64,000 nt of DNA from an uncultured Gemmatimonadales bacterium. Lineage in GTDB: Bacteria > Gemmatimonadota > Gemmatimonadetes > Gemmatimonadales > JACORV01. Made by a program: the position numbers and the translations under genes. Below the pieces are notes generated by a model, which did no database searches, was not told the origin of the DNA, and saw only the letters and a program-made list of their open reading frames with translations. The stretch covers positions 66,547-130,546 of the forward strand of contig CAVSQA010000008.1 in assembly GCA_963729955.1 (NCBI GenBank), written 5' to 3'. Positions 3,938 through 64,000 of the stretch are shown here, one piece after another; the stretch's first letter is position 1, and each line of letters starts with the position of its first letter.

Positions 3938-5815
3938 ATGACGCTCGCAGATCTGCCTGTTCTCAACCCGTCCACGCCCGGCCGCGAGGCCCGGCGCGCG
4001 ATACTCGTCGCCATCCTGTTCGCCGTCTTCGGCGCGCTGTACGCCCTGGCGCGAGCCGCCGCCGCCGCGCCGCCCGACCTCTCGGCCTCGACCGGCGACG
4101 TGTTCGGGTTCGCCTACCCGCGCGGTTGGGGACTCGCGGTGGCGCTGTGGTCGGGCGCCGCGCGCTGGCCCTCGAGCCTCGCCAGCGCCGAGACGTTCCT
4201 CGCGGTCAGCGCCACCGTCGTCATGGCGGTCGCCCTGATCGTGGTGATGCACCCCGACCTCCTGGTGCGTCAGGGACCACAGTACGTCTCGCCCGCGCGC
4301 CGCATTACGACCGTGGTCGTGGCCTTCGTGATGGCCTTCCTCATGTACCGCCTGGTGATCGCGGTCGACGGCGTGTTCTCCTTCGACACCCTTGCCACGA
4401 ACCCGGACCGGGCGCGCCGCGTGCTGGTCGGGCTGGGCGCGCTCAGCGCCATCGTGTTCGGCGGCATCTGGTCGTTCATCGGACCCAAGGACTTCGGCCG
4501 GCGCATACCGCTGCGGATTTCGCACGGGGCCCTGGGCGGGATTGCGGTGTGGGGCGCGGTGGCACTGGCGACGCTGCTCTCCAGCCAGGCGCGGAGCTTC
4601 CTCTCCAGCACCCTCGATACCTTCTACACCCTGTTGACGGTGGACGCCGCCAACGGGGCGCCGGGGGCCACGGCGGGCTGGGCCGTGTCGTCGGACGTGC
4701 TCACGGCGGCCACCGCGATGGCGCTGGCGGGCTCGCTGCTCATCGTCACGGCCCCGCAGTCGCTCGGCCCCGGCAACCGCCGCGGCAGCGCCATCGTGTC
4801 CGGCGTGGTGGCGCTGTTCCTGATCGTCGTGGCGGCCACCACCTGGAGCACCACCCAGGCGCGGGCGCGCGAAGTCGACGTGAACGTGGTCAGCGCCCTC
4901 CAGCTCGACCGCACGGCTCCGGCCCGCACGCCCGTGCTGCTCGCGGGTGAGAGTCTCTCGCCCGCGCGGCGCCTCGTCGCCCGGCCGTTGATCGAGCCGA
5001 CGACGACGGCGGACGACTGCATGCACCCTGGCGGCGAGTCGCGGGTGCTGCCCGCGCGCACCGAGAACAACGTCCGCAAGCTCACCGAGTGGCTCCAGAC
5101 ACATCAGGGCGAGGTGAGCGGCATGGCGGTCCGCGTGGCGAGCTGTCGCGCGGCGCTGCAGGCGCTGCTGTGGGAGCCGGACTCGGCCCGCGCGGGCATC
5201 TTCCTCAGCTCGCACCCCGAGCGCATCGGCGCCCTGACGTACCTGTACGCCATGGCGGGCATCAGCACGTCGGCCCCGGCCCTCCTGCGCCGGACGATCG
5301 CGGCGCTGGGCGATACGACGCGCTATCAGCACGGCGTCGAGGCCCCGAAGCGCTTCATGGCGCTCGCCCGGCTGGCCGGCGACTCGGCGGCCGAGGCGGC
5401 CTGGCGCCAGCTCATCGTGACGCCGGCCACCGCGCAGGAGATGGCCTCGCTCCCGGCGCGGCCCGCGTACACCGACGGCGTGGTGAGCGGCCGCATCGCG
5501 ACCACCACGCCCGGTTGGCGGATCGCGCTGCTGATCGCCGACGAGCCGGGTGCCGGCAGCGATCCGACGTCGCAAGCCCCGCGCTCCGAAGGCTCCATCC
5601 TGTCCTCGATGGTGACCGCGACCAACGTCGGACCCGACGGCCGGTTCAGCTTCACCGGCCTCAGGGACGGCTACTACCAGCTCGCGCTGTTGTCGCCGAA
5701 CGGGACCGAGATCCCCCGGTTGACCAAGCTGGTGGTGAAGAACGATCCGGGCGTCTTCCAGCTCGCGGCGACCAGGAAGGTCAAGGATGTGGGGACGGTG
5801 ACGTTGACGTACTGA
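3938..5815 (+). CDS. Hypothetical polytopic membrane protein with a C-terminal CarboxypepD_reg-like beta-sandwich
   Basis: Single 625-aa ORF. The first ~330 aa contain many hydrophobic helices. The C-terminus GPDGRFSFTGLRDGYYQLALLSPNG resembles a carboxypeptidase-regulatory-like domain. No catalytic motif recognised. Confidence 0.6.
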   Translation: MTLADLPVLNPSTPGREARRAILVAILFAVFGALYALARAAAAAPPDLSASTGDVFGFAYPRGWGLAVALWSGAARWPSSLASAETFLAVSATVVMAVALIVVMHPDLLVRQGPQYVSPARRITTVVVAFVMAFLMYRLVIAVDGVFSFDTLATNPDRARRVLVGLGALSAIVFGGIWSFIGPKDFGRRIPLRISHGALGGIAVWGAVALATLLSSQARSFLSSTLDTFYTLLTVDAANGAPGATAGWAVSSDVLTAATAMALAGSLLIVTAPQSLGPGNRRGSAIVSGVVALFLIVVAATTWSTTQARAREVDVNVVSALQLDRTAPARTPVLLAGESLSPARRLVARPLIEPTTTADDCMHPGGESRVLPARTENNVRKLTEWLQTHQGEVSGMAVRVASCRAALQALLWEPDSARAGIFLSSHPERIGALTYLYAMAGISTSAPALLRRTIAALGDTTRYQHGVEAPKRFMALARLAGDSAAEAAWRQLIVTPATAQEMASLPARPAYTDGVVSGRIATTTPGWRIALLIADEPGAGSDPTSQAPRSEGSILSSMVTATNVGPDGRFSFTGLRDGYYQLALLSPNGTEIPRLTKLVVKNDPGVFQLAATRKVKDVGTVTLTY

Positions 5816-5818
5816 GGA

Positions 5819-5940
5819 CGTGAGAGGTGAGAAGCAAGGGGTGAGAAGCGGAACGTGAGACGTGAGAGGTCAAGGTGAGAGGTGAGGGGCGACCCCTCAC
5901 CTCTCACTTCGTCTGCTCACCTCTCACCCGCCCCTCTCAC
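5819..5940. repeat. Heptamer-array palindrome, GTGAG family, copy 1
   Basis: Seven GTGAG units on the left arm (5820, 5827, 5841, 5855, 5862, 5875, 5882) and five CTCAC units on the right arm (5896, 5903, 5916, 5923, 5936). Perfect 15-bp core stem GTGAGAGGTGAGGGG (5875-5889), loop CGA, CCCCTCACCTCTCAC (5893-5907). Confidence 0.9.
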
Positions 5941-40468: not shown

Positions 40469-42869
40469 ATGCGCCTGCGTCTTCCCGTCGTCCTGCTCTG
40501 CGCCGCCGTCCTCGCCGCCGCCGGTTTCGCCGCCCACGCCCGCCTCCGCCCCGGGCGCCAGGCCGACGGCTCCACGCTCCTGGCCGACGGCTGGCGCATC
40601 ACCCCGGCAGGCCGCGCCGTGGCCGTCGGCACGCTGCCGCTCGCGCTGGCGATCCATCCGGACGGACGGGTTCTCACGCTCCTCAGCGGCTACTCGACCA
40701 ACGGCCTGGTGGTGGTGGACCCGGCGCGCTGGGCGGTGAGCGACTCGGTGCCACTGAGCGCCGCCTGGATGGGCCTCGCGGTGCGGCACGACGGCGCCGT
40801 CTTCGCGTCGGGCGGCACCACCGACCGCGTGTGGCGGCTGGTGGAGACCGAGGGGCGGTGGGCGCGCGCCGACAGCGTCGTGCTGGCCGACTCCGGCGCG
40901 TCGGTGTTCCTCTCGGGGCTCTCGCTCGCGCCGGACGGCGGCCGCCTCGCGGTGGTGGGCGACCTGTGCGACTCCGTCTACCTGCTCTCCGCGTCGCCGC
41001 TGCGGCGCACGGCCGCGGCCGCGACCGGCAGCCATCCCTACACTGCGCTGTTCTCGCGCGACGGGCGCACCCTCTACGTCTCGAACTGGGGCGACAGCAC
41101 CGTCAGCGTCTACGGCGTGACGGGCGGCGCGCTGACGCCGCGCGGCGCGCTGGTGGTGCCGCCGCGGCCCTCGGCGCTCGCGCTCTCGCGCGACGGTCGC
41201 ACGCTGTTCATCGCGCACGCCGCCGCGGACGTCGTGTCGCTGGTGGACCTGCGGGACGGACGGGTGGCGCACACCGTGGCGCTGGGACTCACGGCGCGCG
41301 CGCCGCACGGCTCGGGGCCGAACGCCCTCGCGCTCGCGCCCGACGGCCGGACGCTGTACGTGGCCAACGCCGACAACAACGACGTGGCGGTCGTCCGAGC
41401 TCGGCGGTGACGACGGGCCGCGGGTCGCCGGGCTGATCCCGACCGCCTGGTACCCGACGGCCGTGGCGCTGTCGCGCGACGGGCGCACGCTGTACGTCGC
41501 CAACGGCAAGGGTACCGGCTCCGGCCCCAACCCGCTGGGACCGACCGCCCCGGGCTCGCTGCACAGCCAGTACATCGCGGCGCTCCTGGTAGGGCAGCCT
41601 GTCGCCGGATCCCGGTGCCGGATCCGCCCACGCTGCGCCGCTGGACGCGACAGGTGCTCGCCAACTCGCCCTACCGCGACGCGCTCCTCACGCGGGTCCC
41701 GTGGCCGTCGAGCTCGCCGATCCCGGACTCCGTCGGCAAGCCCTCACCCATCCGTCACGTGGTCTACGTCATCCGCGAGAACCGCACCTACGACCAGGTC
41801 TTCGGCGACGACGGCCGCGGCGACGGCGACTCGCGCCTCGCGATCTTCGGCGACTCGGTGACGCCCAACGCGCACGCGCTGGCGCGGCAGTTCGTGCTGT
41901 TCGACAACTTCTACGTGAACGGTGACGTGAGCGCCGACGGCCACTTGTGGGCGGACGCCGGCTACGCCGGCGACTACGTGGAGAAGACCTGGCCCGCCAA
42001 GTACAGCAACCGTCGCGACTGGGACTTCTGGGCCGGGCTCCCGGCCCTCGACCCGCTGGCAGGCTACATCTGGGACGCGGCGCGCCGCGCAGGCGTGACG
42101 GTGCGCAACTACGGCGAGATGACGCAGTGGGACAGCGCGGCGAAGGTCGCGCACACGGACGACAAGGGCCTCGCCGCGATCACCGACCGGCACTTCACCG
42201 GCTGGGACCTGGACGTCACGGACAGCGCGCGCGTGGACGAGTTCCTGCGCGAGCTGGGCGAGGCCGAGCGCGGCGGCACGCTGCCCCAGCTGATGATCCT
42301 GGATCTCCCGCAACGACCACACGTACGGCCGGCAGGCGGGGCGTCCCACGCCGCGCGCCATGGTCGCGGAGAACGACCGCGCGCTGGGGCGGCATGATCG
42401 AGGCGCTCTCGCACTCGCGGTTCTGGAAGGAGACGGCGGTCTTCGTGCTGGAGGACGACGCCCAGAACGGCCCCGATCACGTGGACGCGCACCGCTCACC
42501 GCTCCTCGTCATGAGCCCGTACGTCCGGCGCGGCATGGTGGACAGCACCTTCTACACGACCGCGTCGGTGCTGCGGACCATCGAGCTGATCCTCGGTCTC
42601 CCGCCGCTGAGCCAGTACGATGCCGCCGCCACGCCGCTGTTCCCCGCCTTCACGATGCGAGCCGGACACGGCGCCGTTCGCGGCGCTGCCCTCGCGCTGG
42701 CCGCTGGGCGAGACCAACCCGTGGAGGCGGCACTCCAGCCTGGACCCGCGGGTGTTCCTGCGCGCCCGACTTGGCGGACGAGAACGTGCTGAACCGCGAG
42801 ATCTGGGCGTCGGTGAAGACGACGCCGATGCCGGCGCCGAGGCACTCGGTCGATGCTGGTGAGAGGTGA
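40469..42869 (+). pseudogene. Fusion of a YncE/lactonase-type beta-propeller and a phosphoesterase (PLC/acid-phosphatase family) domain, secreted; frame-disrupted as sequenced
   Basis: Signal peptide MRLRLPVVLLCAAVLAAAGFA. Repeated ...DGRTLYV(A/S)N... propeller blades in ORF 40469..41410 and 41463..41861. Phosphoesterase part (HVVYVIRENRTYDQVFGD...FVLEDDAQNGPDHVDAHRSP) in 41615..42397 and 41947..42792. Stop TGA at 42867-42869. Confidence 0.7.
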
Positions 42870-43011
42870 GAGGTGAGACGTGAGAAGGACAGGTGAGGGG
42901 TGAGAGGGCGAAAGGCGTGAGAGGGCGCGAGGCCGATGTCGCGACGCGCCCTCTCACTTCATCTTCTCACCTCTCACCTCTCCATCTCACGTCTCACCCC
43001 TCACCTCTCAC
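42859..43011. repeat. Heptamer-array palindrome, GTGAG family, copy 2 (most symmetric copy)
   Basis: Seven GTGAG units (42859, 42866, 42873, 42880, 42893, 42900, 42917) and seven CTCAC units (42953, 42966, 42973, 42986, 42993, 43000, 43007). Core stem GTGAGAGGGCGCG (42917-42929) pairs with CGCGCCCTCTCAC (42945-42957). Confidence 0.9.
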
Positions 43012-43014
43012 GCT

Positions 43015-44011
<997 letters not shown>

Positions 44012-51660: not shown

Positions 51661-53296
51661 GTGCCGGAAGCCGGACCGGACGAGCGCATCGACGTGGGCG
51701 TGCTGTTCGTCGGGGCGGGACCCGCGGGTCTCGCCGGCGCGATCCGCCTGGCCCAGCTGCTCGAGACCGCGCCCGACGTGAAGGAGCGCCTGGGCGACGT
51801 GCCCATCGCCGTCGTCGAGAAAGGCAAGTACCCCGGGGCGCACCTGGTCTCGGGCGCCGTGGTCAACCCGATCGCCTTCCGATCCCTGTTCCCCGACCTG
51901 CCCGACGCAGGAGCGGCCGTTCCGCGGCCCGGTACCGGGCGAGGCGCTGTACCTGCTCACCGAGCGCCGCGCCCTGCGCGCGCCCGTCATGCCGCCCACG
52001 ATGCGCAATCACGGCAACCACGTCGCGTCCATCAGCGAGATCGCCCGGTGGCTGGCCGGAAAGGCCGAAGCCGCGGGGGTCACGATCCTGACCGAGACGT
52101 CGGCGGTAAAGGCGCTGGTGGCCGATGGCGCGGTGCGCGGCGTGCTGACCGGCGACAAGGGCCGAGGCCGCGACGGCACGCCGGAGGCCAATTTCGAGCC
52201 GGGCGCCGAGATCGTGGCCCGGGCCACGGTGATCGCCGAGGGCTCGAACGGCCATCTGGCCACCGCGCTGGCCCACCACTTCGGCCTCGCCGGCCCGAAC
52301 CCCCAGGTGTACGCCCTGGGCGTGAAAGAGGTGTGGGACGTGCCGCGCCCGCTGGACCGGGTGATCCACACGATGGGCTGGCCGCTCCGCTGGGGAAAGG
52401 CGGCCGCGGAGTTCGGCGGGAGCTTCATCTATCCCATGGGCGAGGGGCAGGTCTCGATCGGCCTCGTCGTCGGTCTCGACTACGCCGACGCGTCACTGTC
52501 GGTGCACGACCTGCTGCAGCAGCTCAAGCTGCATCCCCTGGTGCGGCCCATCCTGGAGGGCGGCACCCGCGCGGGCTGGGGAGCGAAGACCATCCCGGAG
52601 GGCGGGTTCTACGCGCTGCCCTCGCAGCTGAGCGTGCGCGGCGCCGTGCTCACGGGCGATGCCGCCGGCCTGGTCAACGTGCCGGCACTCAAGGGCATCC
52701 ACTACGCGATGTGGTCGGGAATCCTGGCGGCGGAGACGATCTTCGGCTGTCTCAAGGCGGGCCGCGATCCCATCGCGCTCGGCGCCCTCTCGGGCTACGA
52801 CCAGGCCGTGCGGCAGAGCTTCATCGGGCGCGACCTGTACCGCGTGCGCAACATGCGCCAGGCGTTCGGCGGCGGCCTCGTGCCGGGCGCCGCGCTGGCC
52901 GGCCTCATGACCCTGACGCGCGGCGCGTTCCCCGGCGGGCGGTTCGGCAGCGAGCCCGACGCCGCGCGGGCCGTCGCGCTCGGCCACCGCGCCTATCCCA
53001 GGTCCGACGGGCAACGCACCTTCGACAAGCTCTCGAGCGTGTATGCCAGCGGGAACCGCACCCGCGACACGCAGCCCAACCACCTGCTGGTCAAGACCGA
53101 GGTGCCGGAAGCCGTCGCCGCGGCCTGGATCAACATGTGCCCCGCGGGCGTCTACGAGTGGACCACCGACGAGCGCGGCGCGCGCACGCTGCGCATCAAC
53201 GCGCCCAACTGCGTGCAGTGCGGCGCGATCAGCGCCAAGGGGGGAAGGCTCACGCCGCCGGAAGGGGGGAGCGGGCCTGAATACACTGTGACGTGA
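51661..53296 (+). pseudogene. Electron-transfer flavoprotein:ubiquinone oxidoreductase; one frame change as sequenced
   Basis: FAD fold VGVLFVGAGPAGLAGAIRLAQL in ORF 51661..53280. The rest is in 51989..53296, including the C-terminal FeS region CPAGVYEW...NAPNCVQCGAISAKG. The frames switch near 51905-51915. Confidence 0.85.
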
Positions 53297-53376
53297 GGGG
53301 ATTAGGGGCTAGGGACTAGGGGTCAGGGGTTAGGGCCCCGCCCCACACTAACCCCTAGCCCCTAGCCCCTAACCCC
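53293..53376. repeat. Heptamer-array palindrome, telomere-like YTAGGGG / CCCCTAR family
   Basis: The left arm reads GTGAGGGG ATTAGGGG CTAGGGA CTAGGGG TCAGGGG TTAGGG, the loop is CCCCGCCCCACA, and the right arm reads CTAACCCC TAGCCCC TAGCCCC TAACCCC. Core GGGGTTAG (53326-53333) pairs with CTAACCCC (53348-53355). Confidence 0.9.
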
Positions 53377-53401
53377 TGGGTGTGGGGTGTCAGGTGTAGG
53401 G

Positions 53402-53875
53402 TTACGCCCGGGCGGCGATCAGGGTCGCCAGCTTCTCGAGGAAGGCCGTATCGTCCGGCGTGAATGCCGCCGGCACGTCGGAATCGATGTCGATCTCGCC
53501 CAGCACCGTCGTGCCCCGCACGATCGGCACCACGATCTCGCTTCTCGTCTCGAGGCTGCAGGCCAGGTAGGCCGGATCCGCGTTCACGTCGTCCACCACC
53601 ACCGTCCGCTTCTCCCGCGCCGCGCGCCCGCAGATCCCCTGGCCCACCGGGATGCGAACGTGGTCGGTCGGCCGCCCGCGGAACGCCCGCAGCCGGAGCG
53701 CGTCGCCCTCCTCCATCCAATAGATGTAGACGCCGGTATAGTGAGGCATGCCGGCCTCAAGGGCCGCCACCAGCCGATCGAGCACGGCCTCGAGCGGCGC
53801 GCGGTCCCCGGCCGCCACCAGCGCGAGGATCTCGCGCTCCGTGGCGGCCCGACCGGAAGGCGTGGCGGTGGTCAT
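53402..53875 (-). CDS. Single-domain GAF protein (free methionine-(R)-sulfoxide reductase-like)
   Basis: 157-aa ORF. VGQGICGRAAREKRTVVVDDVNADPAYLACSLETRSEIVVPI is typical of stand-alone GAF/fRMsr-type proteins. Confidence 0.7.
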   Translation of the reverse strand: MTTATPSGRAATEREILALVAAGDRAPLEAVLDRLVAALEAGMPHYTGVYIYWMEEGDALRLRAFRGRPTDHVRIPVGQGICGRAAREKRTVVVDDVNADPAYLACSLETRSEIVVPIVRGTTVLGEIDIDSDVPAAFTPDDTAFLEKLATLIAARA

Positions 53876-53921
53876 CCAGAAAAGATAGTCGCCGCGCCCT
53901 CCGGTCGCCCGGCACCCCCGT

Positions 53922-54488
53922 TCAGGCAGCCGCCGCCGGGGCGACCACCTGCTTCACCACCTCGGCCTCGATGGCGATCTCCACCATCTCGCCGACCACC
54001 ACGCCCCCGGTCTCGAGGAGCTGGTTGTAGGTCAGGCCGAAGTCCTTGCGGTCCAGCGACGCGCGAGCGCTGAAGCCGGCACGCACGCCTCCCCAGGGGT
54101 CCTTGGCGCTCCCGGCGTAGTCCACGTCGAGCACCACCGGCCGCGTCACTCCGTGCATCGTCAACTCTCCCGCGACCTTGAGCGCACCCGCGCCCCCCTG
54201 CTCGACCCGCGTGCTCTTGAAGGCGATCGTCGGGAAACGCGCCACGTCGAAGAAGTCGGGCGACTTGAGATGTCCGTCACGCTGCTCGACGCCGGTGTCG
54301 ATGCTGCCCGCGTCGATCACGACCTCCACCCGGCCGCCGCTCGGGTCCTTCTCGTCCATCGCCAGCGTGCCCTCCCACTTGGTGAACCGGCCCCGCACCT
54401 TCGAGATCACCATGTGGCGCACGGTGAAGTTCACGCTGGAGTGCACCAGGTCGAACGCCCATTCCTGATTCGCGGTTGCGGCTTGCAT
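53922..54488 (-). CDS. YceI-family periplasmic/lipid-binding-like protein
   Basis: ORF 53922..54494. The preferred start is ATG 54488 (MQAATANQEW), 7 nt after GGAGGA. YceI-like HSSVNFTVRHMVISKVRGRF...VTRPVVLDV. Confidence 0.8.
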   Translation of the reverse strand: MQAATANQEWAFDLVHSSVNFTVRHMVISKVRGRFTKWEGTLAMDEKDPSGGRVEVVIDAGSIDTGVEQRDGHLKSPDFFDVARFPTIAFKSTRVEQGGAGALKVAGELTMHGVTRPVVLDVDYAGSAKDPWGGVRAGFSARASLDRKDFGLTYNQLLETGGVVVGEMVEIAIEAEVVKQVVAPAAAA

Positions 54489-54570
54489 GGTCACATCCTC
54501 CTCGGGTTCGAACTGCAGTAGTACGTTTGGACACTAGTCGTCACAACGAATATCAGTCCAGGCAAACGGC

Positions 54571-55041
54571 TCATTCCGAGTTCGAGCGCGCCTCGTCGAG
54601 CAGGTCAGCGAGGGAGCGCAGCCGCTGCTCGCCCAGGTGCCCCAGCAGCCGCCGCTGCTCCGCCCCGAGCGGACCCTCCAGCTCCTCGAGCAACGCCAGG
54701 CCCGCCTGCGTGATCCGGGTCGTCACGACGCGGCGGTCCTCCCCGTCCCGCGCCCGGCTCACCAGGTGCCTCGCCTCGAGCCGATCCAGCAGCCGCGTCA
54801 GGTCGGGGTCCCTGGTCACCATGCGCTCGGCGATGTCACGGCACGACAGGCCCGGGCCGCCGGCGCCCCGGAGGATCCGGAGCACGTTGTACTGGGTCGG
54901 CGAGAGGCCCGCCGCCTTGAAGACGCCCACGAGCCCGCGCTGCAGCGCATCCGCGGTGCGCGCGAGGCCGACCAGCACCTCCTCTTCGAGGGTGGGAAAC
55001 GGCCGCGTCTGCTTGATCTCGTCCTGAAGGCGCTTCACCAT
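54571..55041 (-). CDS. MarR-family transcriptional regulator
   Basis: ORF 54571..55065. Winged-helix LSPTQYNVLRILRGAGGPGLSCRDIAERMVTRDPDLTRLLDRLE. The preferred start is ATG 55041, because the longer start would lie inside its own predicted promoter. Confidence 0.85.
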   Translation of the reverse strand: MVKRLQDEIKQTRPFPTLEEEVLVGLARTADALQRGLVGVFKAAGLSPTQYNVLRILRGAGGPGLSCRDIAERMVTRDPDLTRLLDRLEARHLVSRARDGEDRRVVTTRITQAGLALLEELEGPLGAEQRRLLGHLGEQRLRSLADLLDEARSNSE

Positions 55042-55049
55042 GGCGCGAC

Positions 55050-55078
55050 AGTATATCTGTTGCAACGACTATTGTCAA
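55050..55078 (-). promoter_or_regulatory. Near-consensus sigma-70 promoter for marR-yceI (predicted leaderless mRNA) with an overlapping inverted repeat
   Basis: The minus strand reads TTGACA (55078-55073), a 17-nt spacer, then TATACT (55055-55050), then 8 nt to ATG 55041. The inverted repeat ACAG-N5-CTGT (55049-55061) overlaps the -10 and is a candidate MarR operator. Confidence 0.5.
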
Positions 55079-55121
55079 GAGCGACAGCTGCCAGGCGGCA
55101 GACCTGACCGCCGTCCCCCCC

Positions 55122-55150
55122 TTGCCATATGAACATTGCCATATTACTAT
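55122..55150 (+). promoter_or_regulatory. Sigma-70-like promoter for arsR-DUF302-trxA-osmC (predicted leaderless mRNA)
   Basis: TTGCCA (55122-55127), a 17-nt spacer, then TACTAT (55145-55150), then 6 nt to ATG 55157. A direct repeat TTGCCATAT occurs at 55122 and 55136. This is the most AT-rich patch of the window. Confidence 0.45.
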
Positions 55151-55156
55151 GTTCTC

Positions 55157-55495
55157 ATGATGACTACCCTGCGTCAGGCACCGCTCGACCCGCGTGTCCT
55201 GGCCGAAGCCGCGGAGATGGTGCGCGTCCTCGGCCACCCGGTGAGGCTCCGGATCGTCGAGCTGCTCGAGCCTGGCGAGCAGACGGTGACCCAGCTGCAG
55301 GAGAGTCTGGACGCGCCGCAGGCGCTGGTTTCGCAGCAACTGGCGCGGATGCGGGCGGCGGGCATCGTCGAGGGGCGGCGCAGCGGCTCCAACGTCTGGT
55401 ACGCCATCGCCGACGAGCGGGTCGTCCGGATGCTCGACTGTCTGCGCCACTGCGACACCGAGGCTGGGCGCGGCCCCCGCCGACAGGGGGAATGA
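55157..55495 (+). CDS. ArsR/SmtB-family transcriptional regulator
   Basis: ORF 55136..55495. HTH LGHPVRLRIVELLEPGEQTVTQLQESLDAPQALVSQQLARMRAAGIV. The preferred start is ATGATG at 55157. Confidence 0.85.
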   Translation: MMTTLRQAPLDPRVLAEAAEMVRVLGHPVRLRIVELLEPGEQTVTQLQESLDAPQALVSQQLARMRAAGIVEGRRSGSNVWYAIADERVVRMLDCLRHCDTEAGRGPRRQGE

Positions 55496-55572
55496 TGACC
55501 GCACCGGAGAGGCGAGTGGAGGACTGATGACGGCACCGGACAAGCAGAGCGGGGGATTGATGACGGCACCGG
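55486..55572 (+). repeat. Three direct copies of a 22-nt RBS-plus-start motif GGRGGAnTGATGACsGCACCGG (period 32-33 nt)
   Basis: Copies at 55486-55507, 55518-55539 and 55551-55572. Each TGATG joins a stop to a start. The arsR stop meets a 10-codon mini-ORF (MTAPERRVED). The mini-ORF stop meets the DUF302 ORF, whose product begins [20 protein letters not shown]. Confidence 0.85.
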
Positions 55573-55997
55573 GCGCGTTGCGCTACGGATTCGAGGCCGA
55601 GCTGCCGGTCGCCTACGAGCGGGCGGTGGCGCTGGTCCGCGACGCCCTCGCGGCGCGCGGATTCGGTGTCCTGACCGAGATCGACGTCCGCGCCACCATG
55701 AAGAAGAAGCTCGACGTGGAATTCCGGCCTTACGTCATCCTGGGCGCCTGTAATCCTCCATTTGCACACCGGGCGCTGTCGGAGGAGCTGCCGATCGGGC
55801 TCCTGCTGCCGTGCAACGTGGTCGTCTACGCCGGCGATCGGCCCGGCACGAGTGTGGTAGCCGTCCTGGATCCCGTGGCTCAGCTAGGGATCGCGGGGCG
55901 GGATGATCTGGCGCCGCTGGCGTCCGAGGTACGCGACCAGCTCCGCGAGGCGCTGGAGCGCGTGCGCCGGGGCGCGGCGGAGCAACCAAGACCCTAA
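55527..55997 (+). CDS. DUF302-family protein
   Basis: 156-aa [43 protein letters not shown]...LLPCNVVVY is typical of DUF302. An alternative internal start is ATG 55560. Confidence 0.75.
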
Positions 55998-56010
55998 GGA
56001 GAATTGAGCC

Positions 56011-56364
56011 GTGAACAACATGACCGTCGTGAGCGATGCCAGCTTCGAGGCCGAGGTACTCAAGGCCGAGGGCCCCGTGCTGGTGGATTTCTGGGCGCCG
56101 TGGTGCGGCCCGTGCCGCGCCGTGGGACCCGTGATCGAGAAGGTGGCCGAGCTGTACGCCGGCCGAGTCAAGGTCGCGAAGATGAACGTGGACGAGAACC
56201 CCGTCACCTCGCAGACCTACGGCATCCGGAGCATTCCGACCGTGGCCCTGTTCAAGGGCGGCGACGTCGTGGACGGCGTCCTCGGCGCCGCTCCCCTGCC
56301 CTTCTTCACCGACATGCTGGACAAGCACCTCGAGCCCAGTGCCGCGAAGGCGGAGAGCGCATGA
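56011..56364 (+). CDS. trxA: Thioredoxin
   Basis: 117-aa ORF. Active site [17 protein letters not shown] lies 9 nt upstream of GTG 56011. Confidence 0.95.
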
Positions 56365-56771
56365 AGCCGGTCACGGTCACCTGGGACGGCGGGGTCCGGT
56401 TCACCGCCGACATTCGCGGCCACAAGCTCGTGGTGGACCAGCCGCCGCAGGGTGGCGGGCAGGATGCCGGGCCGATGCCGCTGGAGCTGATGCCGGCCGC
56501 GCTGGGCACGTGCGTCGCGCTGTTCGTGCGCCAGTTCCTCGCCACGCGCAACCTGGACGCCTCCGGGCTGGCGGTGCAGGTGTTCACGGCGGCCGAGACG
56601 AATCCTCACCGCATCGGGCGCTTCGAGGTGGCCGTCTCGATCCCCAAGGGCGTCCCGGAGCAGTACCGGGATGCGGTCGTGCGAGTGGCCGAAAGCTGCA
56701 CGGTCCATCACACGCTCGTGCACAAGCCGGAGATCGTGGTCGAGGTTCTCGAAGGCGCATTGACCGCCTAG
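56361..56771 (+). CDS. OsmC/Ohr-family peroxiredoxin-like protein
   Basis: ATG 56361 overlaps the trxA stop (ATGA). This is the in-frame C-terminal part of ORF 56004..56771. GPMPLELMPAALGTCVALFV and VAESCTVHHTL carry the two conserved Cys. Confidence 0.8.
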   Translation: MKPVTVTWDGGVRFTADIRGHKLVVDQPPQGGGQDAGPMPLELMPAALGTCVALFVRQFLATRNLDASGLAVQVFTAAETNPHRIGRFEVAVSIPKGVPEQYRDAVVRVAESCTVHHTLVHKPEIVVEVLEGALTA

Positions 56772-56787
56772 CCCCATCCCCACCGGC

Positions 56788-56815
56788 GAGCCGGCGGCCC
56801 GACGGCCGCCGGCTC
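56788..56815 (+). terminator. GC hairpin after osmC
   Basis: GAGCCGGCGGCC (56788-56799), loop CGAC, GGCCGCCGGCTC (56804-56815): a perfect 12-bp stem, 17 nt after the stop. No T-tract. Confidence 0.5.
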
Positions 56816-56972
56816 CGCTGTATCTACCGCACTGCCAAATAGTTACACGATTGCCGACCACGGACCGCGAGTAGGAACGCAACTTGCGGAACCTGGAGCG
56901 CGACGGTGTTGCCGGTCAGACCACCCAGCCAGGGCGCGTCCGAGGCAGCAGCGCACACGGCACGGAGAAATC

Positions 56973-60565
<3,593 letters not shown>

Positions 60566-60573
<8 letters not shown>

Positions 60574-61564
60574 CCTGTCGACCAGCTATCTGGGGCTCAC
60601 CCTGTCGAGCCCCCTGGTGGCCTCGGCCTCGCCCTTGAGCGAGGACCTCGGGAACCTGCGGCGGATGGAGGATGCCGGCGCCGCCGCCGTGGTGCTCCAT
60701 TCCCTGTTCGAGGAGCAGATCGAGCGCGAGAGCCAGGCCCTCGACCGCTCGCTCTCGGCGGGGACCGAGACCTACGCGGAATCGCTCACCTACTTCCCGG
60801 ACCTCAAGCACTACAACCTCGGGCCGGAGGGGTACCTCGAGCACGTGCGCAGGGCCAAGGCGGCGCTCGGCATTCCCGTGATCGGAAGCCTCAACGGCAT
60901 CTCGAGTGGCGGGTGGGTGGACTACGCGCGGGGCATCGAGCAGGCGGGCGCCGACGCGCTGGAGCTCAACGTCTACTTCATCCCGACCGAACCCCACCTG
61001 ACCGGCGCCGCGGTCGAGCAGCAATACTGCGACCTGGTGCGCGACGTGAAGGCCGCCGTCGGGATTCCCCTCGCCGTCAAGGTGGGACACCAGTTCTCGG
61101 CGTTCGCGAACATGGCGCGGCGGCTCGAGGAGGCCGGCGCCGACGCGCTGGTCCTGTTCAACCGCTTCTACCAGCCGGACCTGGACGTCGAGAACCTCGA
61201 GGTGCTGAGCGCCCTGTCGCTCAGCCAGCCCTACGAGCTGCTGCTCCGGCTGCACTGGATCGCGGTGCTGTACGGCCGGATCGAGGCGGACCTCGCCGTG
61301 ACGGGCGGCGTGCACGAGGCGCGCGACGTGCTCAAGGCGATGATGGCTGGTGCCAACGTGGCGATGATGGCCTCGGCATTGCTCAAGCGGGGCATTCCGC
61401 ACCTGGCGACCGTGCGCCGGGACCTGGAGGCGTGGATGGCGGAGCGCGAGTACGAATCCATCCGCCAGATGCGCGGCAGCCTGAGCCAGCGGTCCGCAGC
61501 CAACCCCGAGGCGTTCGAGCGGGCGAATTACGTGAAGGTGCTGTCGAGCTACGCGATGAAATAG
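60566..61564 (+). CDS. Dihydroorotate-dehydrogenase-like TIM-barrel flavoprotein (function unknown), intact
   Basis: 332-aa ORF. ATG 60566 overlaps the PFOR stop by 8 nt (ATGACTGA). Class-1 DHOD-like layout ([10 protein letters not shown]...IGSLNG...ADALELNVY...AVKVG...VTGGV). Confidence 0.75.
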
Positions 61565-61743
61565 GTGAGACGTGAGGGGTGAGAGGTGAGAGGACGACGT
61601 GAGAGGTGAGAAGGGAAAGCGAAAGGTGAGAAGAAAGGCGTGAGAGGCCGGCCCCGTCCTCTCACGCCTTTTGACCTCTCACCTCGCACCTCACCCTCTC
61701 ACGTCTCACCTTACCCTCTCACCCCTCACGACTCACCTCTCAC
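61565..61743. repeat. Heptamer-array palindrome, GTGAG family, copy 3 (longest)
   Basis: Eight GTGAG units (61565, 61572, 61579, 61586, 61599, 61606, 61626, 61640). Nine CTCAC units (61661, 61678, 61690, 61698, 61705, 61718, 61725, 61732, 61739) plus one degenerate CTCGCAC. Confidence 0.9.
61634..61671. terminator. Core hairpin of the palindrome with flanking T/A runs (bidirectional intrinsic-terminator-like)
   Basis: AAAGGCGTGAGAGG (61634-61647), a 10-nt loop, then CCTCTCACGCCTTT (61658-61671): a perfect 14-bp stem. It is followed by TTTTG on the + strand and by CTTTCTTC on the - strand. Confidence 0.55.
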
Positions 61744-63254
61744 GCCTGCATCGTCTTCAAGAACCCCATATCATGCCCCTTGGCCCTGAGCATCGCCTCG
61801 AGGCCGGACTTGTCGGCCGCCTTCATGTAGGCCTCGGCGGGCTCCACCAGCCGCTTCTCGACCACCTCCATCAGGGCGTCGTTGAGCGTGACCATCCCCA
61901 GCTTCTTGTTGGTCTGGATCATCGAGGGGATCTGGAACGTCTTGCCCTCGCGAATCAGGTTGGCGATGGCAGGGATGGCGAGCAGGATCTCGCGGACGGC
62001 GACGCGCCCCCCGCCGATCTTCTTGCACAGGATCTGCGCCACCACGCCCTTCAGGGACTCCGACAGCATCACCCGGATCTGGCTCTGCCGGTCGGCCGGG
62101 AACTGGTCGATGATGCGGTCCACCGTCGAGGCGGCGGTGGTGGTGTGCAGCGTGCCGAAGACCAGGTGGCCCGTCTCGGCCGTCTCGATGGCGATCGCCA
62201 TGGTCTCCAGGTCCCGCATTTCGCCGACGAGCACGATGTCCGGGTCTTCCCGCAGCGCCGCGCGCAGCGCCCGCCGGAACGACTCGGTGTGCAGAGCGAC
62301 CTGCCGCTGGGTGATGACGCAGCTCTTGTTGGGGTGCACGAACTCGATCGGGTCCTCGATCGTGATCACGTGGTCGGTGCGCTTGCGGTTGACCAGGTCG
62401 ATCATGGCCGCCAGCGTGGTGGACTTGCCCGAGCCGGTCGGGCCGGTGACCAGCACCAGACCCTTGGAGAGGAAACAGAGCTTCTGCACCTCCTCCGACA
62501 GGCCGAGCTCCTCGGCGGTCTGCACCGTGGTCGGGATGACCCGGAACGCCGCGCCGGGACCGTGGCGATCCCGGAGCACGTTGCAGCGGAAGCGCGCGAG
62601 ATCGAGGATCTCGTACGCGAAGTCCGTGTCGTTGGTCTGGGCGAACTCGGTCCGGTTGCGGTCGGGCATGATGGCGAAGAGCATCGCCTCCATCTCTTCG
62701 AGGGTGAGCGGGGCGTGGCCCTCGGTCCGCTTCATCACGCCGGACTTGCGGGTGATCGGCGGCTCGCCGACCCGGAGATGGAGATCCGACGACCCCGATT
62801 CGACGAGCGAGCGCAGCAGCCCCTGAATCCGCTCCTCGGCCGCGGCCGCCGCCGCCGTGGGAGCGCGCCGGGGCGCGGCCGCGCCTTGCACGGGCGCCGT
62901 GGCGGGGCTGCGGGCCTCCATCGGCATCGAGATCGCGGCGCTCGAGCGGCGTGGCTTCGCGGGTCCGATCGTGACCTCGACGTCGTTGCCCAGGTGGACG
63001 ATCTCCACGTCCACCCGCTTGCCGTCCACCGCGTAGCCGAACGCCATCCGCGATTCGGCGTCGAGGTGGTCTTTCATGCCGTCGGGGGCGATTTCCCGCA
63101 CCAGCGCCATGATCTTGGCCTTGGTGAGGAGATCCTTGGTGACCGGGCGGTCGGTGCCGTCCAGCTCCAGCGTCACCGCCGAGCCGCCGGCCAGGCGCAT
63201 GCTCGACGCGCCCTGCTGGAACATCACCTCGATGAACTTGTCGAGCGTCGCCAT
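61740..63254 (-). CDS. pilT: PilT-family type IV pilus retraction-like ATPase with an extra N-terminal domain (~145 aa)
   Basis: Single 504-aa ORF. Walker A GPTGSGKST, Walker B DIVLVGEMRD, His box TGHLVFGTLHT. The canonical PilT N-domain starts at ~aa 150 (SDLHLRVGEPP) and is preceded by a degenerate copy of it. Confidence 0.85.
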   Translation of the reverse strand: MATLDKFIEVMFQQGASSMRLAGGSAVTLELDGTDRPVTKDLLTKAKIMALVREIAPDGMKDHLDAESRMAFGYAVDGKRVDVEIVHLGNDVEVTIGPAKPRRSSAAISMPMEARSPATAPVQGAAAPRRAPTAAAAAAEERIQGLLRSLVESGSSDLHLRVGEPPITRKSGVMKRTEGHAPLTLEEMEAMLFAIMPDRNRTEFAQTNDTDFAYEILDLARFRCNVLRDRHGPGAAFRVIPTTVQTAEELGLSEEVQKLCFLSKGLVLVTGPTGSGKSTTLAAMIDLVNRKRTDHVITIEDPIEFVHPNKSCVITQRQVALHTESFRRALRAALREDPDIVLVGEMRDLETMAIAIETAETGHLVFGTLHTTTAASTVDRIIDQFPADRQSQIRVMLSESLKGVVAQILCKKIGGGRVAVREILLAIPAIANLIREGKTFQIPSMIQTNKKLGMVTLNDALMEVVEKRLVEPAEAYMKAADKSGLEAMLRAKGHDMGFLKTMQA

Positions 63255-63267
63255 CCCTGTCCCCTGG

Positions 63268-64000
63268 CTAGTTGCGCGGTTCGCTCGGCCCCGGCTCGGT
63301 CGAGCTCGGCTTCGCCGGCGCCGCGGCGGGTGTTCCGGCCGGCGGCTTCGCCGGGCCCGGAGCCGGGACGGCCGCCGGGCGCACCGGAGCCGCCGTCGGC
63401 GACGGGGGCGCCGTCGCCGGCCTGGGCGGCGGAACGGCCGCCGACCCGGCTTGCGGTGCGGCGGCGGGCTTCGCCGCGGGAGCCGGCGCGGCGGCGGGCT
63501 TCGATCCGGCTGGAGCCGGCGCGGCGGCCGGTGCGCCAGCCGGCTTCGGCGGCGCGGCAGGCTTCGCTCCCGGCGGTCCGGGCGCGGCGGCCCTGGGGCC
63601 GGCAGGCCCCGGGGCGCCAGCCGGGGCGGCGCCCGCCCTCGGCGCCGCCGGAGGCTTCACTCCGGCCGGAACCGGTGCGGCAGCCGGCCTCGGAGCCGGC
63701 GGTTTCGCCGCCGGAGCAGGCACGGCCCCCGGCTTCGGGGCGCCGGACGGCGTCGCCGCGGCGGGACCGGTGACGGTGGCGGCCGCGGGCTTGGCCTGAG
63801 CCGTGGTCGCACGCTTGGCCGCCTCCCTCGCCTCTTCGGCGATCACCCGCGCCTTGATGTGCTCGGCCTGCTCCTTCATCTCCTTCTCGTGGAGATAGGC
63901 CTTCTCCTTCTGCTGCGACTCGTCGGCCGTGATGGTCGCCTTGATCGTGCGCTCGACGAGCGCGCGGAAGGACGCCACCCCGTCCCGCAGCACCCGCCCC
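63268..64000 (-). CDS. Hypothetical protein with a charged coiled-coil-like segment and a long Pro/Ala-rich C-terminal tail (partial; 5' end beyond the window)
   Basis: The frame is open to the window edge; the ORF track starts at GTG 63993. The TAG stop (63268-63270) is 13 nt upstream of the pilT ATG, with AGGGGA between. The tail is about 170 aa of (K)PAAAPAPAG-type low complexity. Confidence 0.5.
   Translation of the reverse strand, partial: GRVLRDGVASFRALVERTIKATITADESQQKEKAYLHEKEMKEQAEHIKARVIAEEAREAAKRATTAQAKPAAATVTGPAAATPSGAPKPGAVPAPAAKPPAPRPAAAPVPAGVKPPAAPRAGAAPAGAPGPAGPRAAAPGPPGAKPAAPPKPAGAPAAAPAPAGSKPAAAPAPAAKPAAAPQAGSAAVPPPRPATAPPSPTAAPVRPAAVPAPGPAKPPAGTPAAAPAKPSSTEPGPSEPRN

Follow-up and report, generated by a model that had tools for sequence, protein, structure and literature searches.

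What marks the end of two converging genes when the whole space between them is filled by a short repeat and its complement? The question is raised by a 64,000-nt stretch of DNA from an uncultured Gemmatimonadales bacterium (GenBank assembly GCA_963729955.1, contig CAVSQA010000008.1), here called the window, in which a dihydroorotate-dehydrogenase-like (DHOD-like) gene and a gene for a PilT/PilU-family type IVa pilus ATPase (pilT/pilU) run towards each other. The 175-nt gap between them is wholly occupied by an imperfect palindrome of GTGAG units followed by CTCAC units, at positions 61565-61743. Neither a gene nor a CRISPR array nor an artefact of assembly, it is a 3'-end hairpin element that is real, non-random and evolutionarily maintained. 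As judged from its sequence and that of its relatives, it is probably a copy of a Gemmatimonadales extragenic-hairpin family and would serve both converging genes as a shared 3'-end element, as terminator, stabiliser or both.

Structure of the element

The element is 179 nt long and holds 8 GTGAG units and then 9 CTCAC units, most of them spaced by 7 nt. The GTGAG units start at 61565, 61572, 61579, 61586, 61599, 61606, 61626 and 61640, and the CTCAC units at 61661, 61678, 61690, 61698, 61705, 61718, 61725, 61732 and 61739. A preliminary description of the window had given the spacings as 7-7-7-13-7-20-14 in the left arm and, mirrored, 7-7-7-13-7-8-12-17 in the right arm, and the unit positions match both exactly. 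In the GTGAGNN units GTGAG is invariant and NN varies (AG in 11 of 21, AC in 5, GG in 4 and TC in 1). At the composition of the window GTGAG is expected about 53 times per strand in 64 kb, or about 0.15 times in 179 nt, against the 8 observed plus 9 of its complement. Runs of at least 3 G are absent from the units, except in an occasional GTGAGGG, so that they do not amount to a G-quadruplex motif. The arms consist of purine-only or pyrimidine-only tandem units, incapable of self-pairing.

Folded as RNA, the element reaches -123.4 kcal/mol on the + strand and -133.3 kcal/mol on the - strand, in an imperfect hairpin of about 70 bp. Shuffled versions reach -68 (+; z = -14.1) and -76 (-; z = -11.9), and none of the 200 was as stable. 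Heptamer palindromes also top the ranking of close inverted repeats across the whole window. At the centre, the innermost 14 pairs, AAAGGCGTGAGAGG with CCTCTCACGCCTTT, are perfect, with 61634-61647 pairing with 61658-61671. This core alone folds at -28.7 (+) and -27.6 (-) kcal/mol (z -5.9 and -5.1) and is followed on the + strand by the tail UUUUGACC (4 U) and on the - strand by UUUCUUCU (6 U in 8). The preliminary description spoke of a perfect 14-bp stem flanked by T/A runs. The stem is indeed perfect, but the AAA/TTT pairs already lie inside the 14 bp, leaving a G+C-rich portion of 11 bp.

Both genes end at or in the repeat. The DHOD-like stop codon TAG (61562-61564) abuts the first GTGAG unit with 0 nt between, while the pilT/pilU stop TGA (61740-61742) falls inside the last unit, CTCTCAC at 61737-61743. 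The gene ends at 61564 and 61740 thus bear out two earlier statements, that the gap is entirely this element and that the pilT stop lies within the last CTCTCAC. An independent short-read assembly of a near-identical strain (Logan SRR28002944, L001) has a left arm that is base-for-base identical and breaks at the hairpin apex; the sequence of the element is therefore not an assembly artefact.

Conservation of the element in the orthologous gap

The gap between the DHOD-like and PilT/PilU genes was gathered from about 15 relatives (comparison sequences are given by their L numbers). Among named sequences, the flanking proteins have their nearest homologs in Gemmatimonadales metagenome-assembled genomes (MAGs), and the order PFOR - DHOD-like - gap - PilT/PilU is retained in the relatives. 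A repeat-built hairpin is present in the gap of about 15 relatives, and in every one of these hairpins the 3' arm complements the 5' arm.

The relatives L125/L131/L133, L135 and L136/L137, at 81-85% DHOD identity, have a GTGAG-type hairpin of similar length, with a left arm collinear with that of the window. The 7-7-7-13-7 phasing of the window is found on both arms in L136/L137, at 81% amino acid identity, together with the irregular 13-nt unit (GTGAG-ACGTTCAA against GTGAG-AGGACGAC in the window). The core AAGGCGTGAGAGG / CCTCTCACGCCTT is retained in the GTGAG-type orthologs L125, L133 and L135-L137. The preliminary description had named an alignment of the genomic copies as the check for conserved phasing or a consensus; among GTGAG-type orthologs, phasing, irregular unit and core are kept. 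The RNAalifold consensus of these orthologs has 64 pairs, 7 of which (7/64) show double, compensatory changes, one of them from A:U to C:G within the A/T tract of the core.

Other relatives have changed the unit and kept the pairing, from GTGAG:CTCAC to GTGAT:ATCAC or GGGTTGT:ACAACCC. The GTGAT type, found in L122, L128-L130, L132, L141 and L331, is composed of GTGATGNN units with a period of 8-9 and constant ends ACGGGGAGGTGATG...CTCCCCGT. In L127 GGGTTGT/ACAACCC units surround a textbook-looking core, and L132 and L134 have short versions of 2-3 units. The DHOD tree places the GTGAG-7 and GTGAT-8 groups largely in clades of their own, and L122, the sister of the window, has GTGAT-type ends.

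Between strains at 99.1-99.4% gene identity the elements are 99-100% identical, and unit number is constant between close strains. At 85-92% gene identity the elements can still be aligned (73-82%). A hypervariable contingency repeat was considered and rejected, since close strains carry identical or near-identical elements.

Further away, the same position is occupied by other structures. The distant organisms L147, L155, L162 and L164, from other phyla, have a canonical hairpin and T-run terminator directly after the DHOD-like gene. A distant G+C-rich clade at about 66% amino acid identity (L143, L150, L153, L159, L167) has a one-sided (GTGATGG/GTGATGA)n array of up to about 10 units after the DHOD-like stop, which starts in phase with the TGA that ends the gene. 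In another distant organism an unrelated palindrome, (AGACAAG)n and then (TCTCTTG)n, lies a short way past the DHOD-like gene (L186, 1591-1645), so the architecture recurs with arbitrary units.

Relatedness of the copies

The window holds two other GTGAG/CTCAC palindromes, copies 1 and 2 (Table 1), and the element in the DHOD-like/pilT gap is copy 3. As had been described, this third copy is the longest (179 nt against 121 and 153). Copy 2 has a spacing of 7-7-7-13-7-17 on the left and, mirrored, 7-7-7-13-7-13 on the right, so that the outer 7-7-7-13-7 phasing is common to copies 2 and 3 on both arms, again in agreement with the earlier account. The 13-nt unit is GTGAGAAGGACAG in copy 2 and GTGAGAGGACGAC in copy 3. 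The two copies also have a core-left 13-mer in common, and a GTTCAAG-like irregular unit occurs in copy 1, in orthologs of copy 3 and at a second locus of the L125 genome. Copy 2 has an ortholog of its own, L329, in which both the 13-nt unit peculiar to this locus (GTGAGAAGGATAG against GTGAGAAGGACAG) and the 7-7-7-13-7-13 phasing of the right arm are retained.

When copies 2 and 3 were aligned, their score did not significantly exceed that of unit-order shuffles (p = 0.17), and in the unit-order permutation test only one pair from different genomes was significant (L125 against L075). By our own estimate, the shared position of the 13-nt unit is a coincidence of about 1 in 5 if irregular units lie innermost. 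The claim that the copies are related and not random is thus supported mainly by the orthologs, that is, by the phasing in L136/L137, the cores and the unit of L329. Phasing, irregular units and core are conserved in orthologs and several features are common to different loci, and for this reason we regard the copies as members of a family and not as chance microsatellites. From these comparisons the family has a defined architecture: outer heptamers, the irregular 13-nt unit, two more units, a spacer and the core. The inference of relatedness is right, although the sequence of the window alone would not prove it.

The window has 3 GTGAG copies in its 64 kb, and a related genome has 4 within about 38 kb. 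Repeat type tends to agree within a genome, with GTGAG at 4 loci of GCA_035502185.1 and GTGAT-8 at 3 loci of contig Ga0209777_10000112. In L330 GTGAT-8 is present at both loci seen, including the GAF|ETF-QO gap, which has G-run units in other genomes. This concordance, seen in 3-4 genomes only, hints at homogenisation or copying between loci.

The GTGAT hairpin family (GTGATGNN, period 8-9, constant ends ACGGGGAGGTGATG...CATCACCTCCCCGT) was found at several loci and in several genomes: L123 17176-17295, L328 10997-11107, L330 524-616 and 10997-11104, L128-L130, L132, L122 and L331 11000-11090.

Position and polarity in the wider class

Palindromic arrays of the GTGAGNN heptamer occur in many phyla and in phage contigs. 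The loci of this wider class were selected by pattern from genomes and viral contigs. A gene 3' end lies within 50 nt of 25-26 of the 30 palindromic GTGAG arrays, and 0 of the 30 are in a purely divergent gap. The elements of related genomes are mostly found in convergent gaps, or in co-directional gaps right after a stop codon. In the window, copies 1 and 2 and the TTAGGGG-type element (Table 1) likewise begin 0-5 nt from a stop codon.

The order of the two arms is nearly invariant. The GTGAG array stands 5' of the CTCAC array in 22 of 22 clean palindromes and in 4 mixed ones, with no case of the reverse order, and the control-unit palindromes are also G-first (2 of 2). A palindrome has the same order on both strands, so that every incoming transcript meets the purine-rich arm first. 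Such a strict G-first order speaks against a hairpin or cruciform that acts as DNA only, which would be indifferent to it.

Among tandem repeats of at least 3 copies, period 7 is by far the commonest: it accounts for 58 of about 150 arrays within 470 kb of loci that were chosen regardless of repeats. The idea of GTGAG as a special pan-bacterial motif was rejected, as the reversed unit GAGTGNN x7 forms 29 stretches in viral contigs against 34 for GTGAGNN x7. Several viral contigs have multiple palindromic GTGAG/CTCAC arrays, all G-first (L275 with three, L296 with two, L207, L208, L220, L246 and other IMG/VR contigs), and IMGVR_UViG_3300039307_000285 has eight or more GTGAGNN arrays. In a Pyrinomonadaceae MAG (L039, 5013-5395) and a Flammeovirgaceae MAG (L048, 1002-1257) another 150-250 bp lie between the GTGAG and CTCAC arrays. 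The inner stretch of L039 is visibly palindromic, so that the whole makes up a composite hairpin of about 380 bp, located between convergent genes.

Rare C-first palindromes were also observed. An (ACACCCT)n...(GGGTGTA)n palindrome is conserved in the co-directional YceI|GAF gap of three genomes (L125 3282-3366, the same as L327 66-150; L331 3675-3772; L332 3679-3776), and L123 has a C-first CCACCCCAACCCCC...GGGGGTTGGGGGGTGG palindrome (5307-5438) between divergent genes.

A proposed shared hairpin at the ends of two transcripts

We propose the following course of events. The 5' arm is a run of tandem G/purine-rich heptamers (GTGAGNN, mostly GTGAGAG), the 3' arm is complementary to it, and a central G+C-rich stem-loop with A and T runs lies between them. 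The element spans the whole gap between converging genes, and either transcript therefore reads the purine-rich arm first. With the pyrimidine-rich arm coming second, the RNA would fold into the imperfect hairpin of about 70 bp. This hairpin may drive RNA polymerase to stop with little U tract; alternatively or additionally, it may block 3'-to-5' exonucleases. An exonuclease block after Rho-dependent termination is equally compatible with the data. Either role would keep each transcript out of the opposing gene. Tandem repeats would let the arms pair in many registers, so that the nascent 3' arm readily finds a partner. The pyrimidine-rich 3' arm may also provide a weak RNA:DNA hybrid in place of a U tract, as the general knowledge of hybrid stabilities would suggest; a cause of this sort could underlie the polarity.

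Long stems with poor U tracts would not be out of place here, since in species of high G+C content terminator stems tend to be longer and U tracts shorter (PMC13613805). The core still does not look like a textbook terminator, because its T run is only 4 long. The preliminary description saw in it a classical bidirectional terminator. What stands of this is a conserved and stable core, its A/T flanks and the canonical terminators at the same site in other phyla; what speaks against the classical form is the 4-T tail UUUUGACC, the empty terminator scan and the loss of an A:U pair described below.

Several observations weigh against a role at transcript ends. A consensus terminator scan of positions 52000-64000 of the window returned no sites, and the U run of the core is only 4 long on the + strand. 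In L125/L133 an A:U pair in the A/T tract of the core has become C:G, which preserves the pairing and shortens the U run. Efficient termination at the core would leave the outer 3' arm seldom transcribed, and some other reason would then have to be found for why the outer arms are conserved. L121 lacks the hairpin altogether, with a gap of 25 nt. Relatives also have two palindromes of G-run heptamers that are C-first. Some copies are probably internal to operons, such as the one between ABC-transporter genes at 17176-17295 of L123, and there full termination is unexpected. Finally, in co-directional gaps the transcribed strand folds better in 5 cases and the antisense strand in 6, so there is no strand-specific G:U signature of RNA-level selection.

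Alternative explanations

Features common to different loci fit a selfish or mobilised dispersed repeat, of the REPIN or miniature inverted-repeat transposable element (MITE) kind, or a repeat homogenised by gene conversion, for which sites behind genes would be tolerated or targeted and terminator activity would be secondary. The core-left 13-mer (copies 2 and 3) and the GTTCAAG-type unit are shared between loci, the GTGAT period-8 ends ACGGGGAGGTGATG...CTCCCCGT recur at 3-4 loci in several genomes, and repeat type is concordant across the loci of a genome, yet differs between genomes at orthologous loci. This concordance comes from 3-4 genomes only, and no target-site duplication is visible in the inspected flanks of copies 1-3 and the GTGAT-8 copies. 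The arms are not self-palindromic REPs and have no GTAG head. No transposase was found among the Pfam labels beside any copy in the gene tables obtained (the 64 kb and the flanks in relatives). Sites are occupied across deep divergence and locus-specific irregular units are kept between orthologs, which argues for long residence in place and not for recent insertion; we consider a mobile origin rather unlikely. Slipped-strand expansion of heptamers beside an ordinary terminator hairpin, with template switching copying changes to the other arm, would instead make the element a functionless by-product of mutation. It would suit the predominance of period 7 (58 of about 150 arrays), the near-equal frequency of the reversed unit (29 against 34), by which the unit is not special, the drift of unit type and period between lineages, and a folding that lacks strand asymmetry. 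A neutral process at the DNA level does not predict the strict G-first polarity (22-26 against 0), however, nor would one expect from it phasing and irregular units conserved at only 81% identity of the flanking proteins, a unit number invariant between close strains, or elements common in phage contigs, where spare DNA is scarce. A mere by-product seems improbable to us.

The start of the arrays at or within a stop codon, in phase with TGA in the distant G+C-rich clade, also brings to mind an array of binding sites for a trans-acting factor that acts as translation ends, for instance the ribosome, through the 3' tail of 16S rRNA, or units that serve as back-up stop codons. GAGGUGA and GAGGUGAU are perfect complements of this tail, and the consensus unit of the GTGAT family, GAGGTGAT, is a perfect 8-nt complement of it. 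The commonest units of the lineage are GTGAGAG, which is GAGGTGA in another register (NN is AG in 11/21), and GAGGTGAT, the Tandem Repeats Finder (TRF) consensus. G-first polarity gives a TGA in the sense direction for both incoming genes, and at a 7-nt period it falls in all three frames for both. Across phyla, however, NN is widely spread (CA, TG, TA, GC, GA and others) and AG is not favoured; on this ground Shine-Dalgarno mimicry as a general property was rejected. The units GGGGTTT and GGGTTGT of the same genomes have neither 16S complementarity nor TGA, the sites would be paired and hidden inside the hairpin, and G/T/A-rich heptamers often contain TGA or TAG by chance. The 16S-tail complementarity and the TGA of each unit are probably incidental, and an array of this kind is very improbable. 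We give equally little credence to a role of the DNA itself, as a cruciform or hairpin that affects replication, recombination, supercoiling or DNA uptake. In favour of it, the palindrome is long with a short central spacer, assemblies break at its apex, and the equal stability of both strands is what a feature at the DNA level predicts. Such a hairpin should be indifferent to G-first or C-first, yet the order is nearly invariant, and the tight association with stop codons and the 3' ends of genes suggests a part in transcription or translation.

Comparison with known repeats

The closest likeness is to the (GGGAATC)n heptamers of Xanthomonas campestris and X. axonopodis, of which there are about 185 per genome, approximately 90% of them intergenic (Rehm et al. 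2015, PMC4692102). These arrays lie on average 28 nt from the upstream ORF, much nearer than to the next one, and in 70-75 cases per genome they form convergent inverted pairs on opposite strands that are capable of a stem-loop; their function was left open (PMC4692102). Copy 3 is likewise composed of tandem heptamers with a conserved part (4-5 nt in Xanthomonas) and variable positions, is intergenic, lies at the end of the upstream ORF and has two arrays in convergent orientation with the capacity for a stem-loop. It differs in its unit, GTGAGNN, which has no G-quadruplex potential, and in its phylum; the family described here is further set apart by the conservation of its central stem-loop and of its irregular 13-nt unit. 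The Gemmatimonadales family is thus of the same kind as the Xanthomonas heptamers and adds to them a conserved core and conservation at orthologous sites.

REP, BIME and REPIN sequences are dispersed and extragenic, often found after stop codons or between convergent genes, with several sequence types per genome; they affect termination and the stability of upstream mRNA, and REPIN hairpins measure about 100 nt. The repeats described here resemble them as dispersed extragenic hairpins after stop codons with several types per genome, and differ from REP and REPIN in that the arms are tandem heptamers, not short self-palindromes, and have no GTAG head. With MITEs they share long inverted arms but not a target-site duplication, in the flanks of copies 1-3 and the GTGAT-8 copies. 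The resemblance to an intrinsic bidirectional terminator lies in a G+C-rich stem-loop that follows the stop codon directly, is preceded by an A run and followed by a T run, and stands between two convergent genes. In contrast to such a terminator, the stem is about 70 bp and not the usual 5-15 bp, it is built from repeats, its U run is 4 and it fails the consensus terminator scan. By analogy, REP/REPIN sequences and the long, U-poor terminator hairpins of high-G+C species would be functional analogues of this family.

The TAACTGA repeats of Beggiatoaceae, Cyanobacteria and Bacteroidetes occur as 169 direct sets and a single inverted one, for the most part a short way ahead of start codons (MacGregor 2015, PMC4679880). 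Like these and the cyanobacterial STRR sequences, the present repeats are intergenic tandem heptamers abundant in particular lineages; unlike such direct arrays, they are palindromic and located at gene 3' ends. Rfam gave no match in the window at gathering thresholds, and a permissive search returned only generic models of long-hairpin miRNAs, the best with 64.5 bits against a threshold of 168. In the literature we found no description of such repeats in Gemmatimonadota.

Genes and other features of the window

Genes were assigned by Pfam and NCBIfam matches, tblastn and the gene tables of related contigs; ab initio calling by third-position G+C (GC3) is unreliable at 72% G+C. Table 1 gives the features of the locus and of the other repeat hairpins.

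Table 1. Positions in the window of the hairpin in the DHOD-like/pilT gap, its parts, the genes beside it and the other repeat hairpins.
Feature	Positions	Strand	Basis or remark
Whole element (copy 3), imperfect palindrome: GTGAGNN-type units, core stem-loop, NNCTCAC-type units	61565..61743		Fills the convergent gap
Outer left arm, G/purine-rich units; irregular 13-nt unit GTGAGAGGACGAC at 61586	61565..61633		Unit positions; collinear with orthologs L125, L133, L135-L137
Core stem-loop: AAAGGCGTGAGAGG, 10-nt loop region CCGGCCCCGT, CCTCTCACGCCTTT	61634..61671		Inverted repeat, fold, conservation
Outer right arm, pyrimidine-rich units, CTCAC from 61678 to 61739; the last holds the pilT/pilU stop	61672..61743		Unit positions
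DHOD-like gene	60566..61564	+	Pfam DHO_dh; NCBIfam NF005741, 476 bits
PilT/PilU-family type IVa pilus ATPase gene, 504 aa	61740..63254	-	Pfam T2SSE; TIGR01420, 460 bits against a cut-off of 319
Copy 1, 121 nt, co-directional gap	5820..5940		GTGAG/CTCAC palindrome
Copy 2, 153 nt, convergent gap	42859..43011		GTGAG/CTCAC palindrome; ortholog L329
TTAGGGG-type element: (GGGGNTA / TTAGGGG)n then (CTAACCC)n, between ETF-QO (+) and GAF gene (-)	53296..53377		Inverted repeat

An unknown 625-aa gene has its stop codon (5813-5815) 4 nt ahead of copy 1, and 61 nt separate the end of this copy from the ATG (6002) of a VIT-domain gene. At copy 2, the TGA stop (42867-42869) of a lactonase/phosphoesterase gene on the + strand lies inside unit 2, and the stop of a FabH-like gene on the - strand (43015-43017) lies 3 nt past the last unit. 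The TTAGGGG-type element has the architecture of copy 3 with a different heptamer, and it has runs of at least 3 G. The palindrome at 53296-53400 comprises GGGGATTA/GGGGCTA/GGGGTCA/GGGGTTA units and then CTAACCC/CTAGCCC, with remnants of GGGTGTG/GGTGTAG after it. In relatives the ETF-QO|GAF gap holds GGGTGTA (one-sided), GGGGTTT/CCCCCAA, GGGGCTA/CCCCTAG or GTGAT-8 units.

The lactonase/phosphoesterase gene (40469-42869) has four frame changes in its last ~550 nt and is a single ORF of 797-799 aa in relatives, and the FabH-like gene (43015-44011) has one frameshift near 43380-43425. This suggests indel errors of the assembly or pseudogenes, and single-base differences of spacing in the repeats of the window are therefore to be read with care. 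Among the comparison sequences, the aconitase gene of L329 (412 + 489 aa) and the PFOR gene of L331 are split, which is consistent with indel-prone long-read assemblies. TRF also reports tandem repeats of longer period at 55486-55572 and 63454-63592, with units of 32-33 nt in 2.6-2.7 copies and of 63 nt in 2.2 copies, the latter with 30-nt units nested inside.

What the hairpin may mean

Among the long simple repeats of many bacterial genomes, heptamers are the most strongly over-represented; the observation goes back to Mrazek et al. 2007, as reported by Rehm et al. (PMC4692102). The present locus and its orthologs are a clean case of heptamers that form a conserved hairpin where two converging transcripts must end. 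They offer three testable handles: a near-invariant G-first polarity, conserved phasing together with a conserved core, and a switch of unit and period (7 to 8) in which the partner arm follows.

A broader and decidedly speculative idea, to which we give little weight, is that repeat hairpins with the purine arm first are widespread and unrecognised 'zipper' terminators of bacteria and phages, independent of a U tract. On this idea, the Gemmatimonadales families would change unit type in concert, by a copying or homogenising mechanism or a co-evolving trans factor.

The concordance of repeat type within genomes, should it hold, would suggest that an unknown process homogenises or mobilises the repeats. 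Hairpins of this kind, if they do turn out to act as terminators, would form a recognisable class for terminator prediction in high-G+C and uncultured phyla. The main interest of the family lies in its polarity rule and in the possible concerted evolution of its repeat types.

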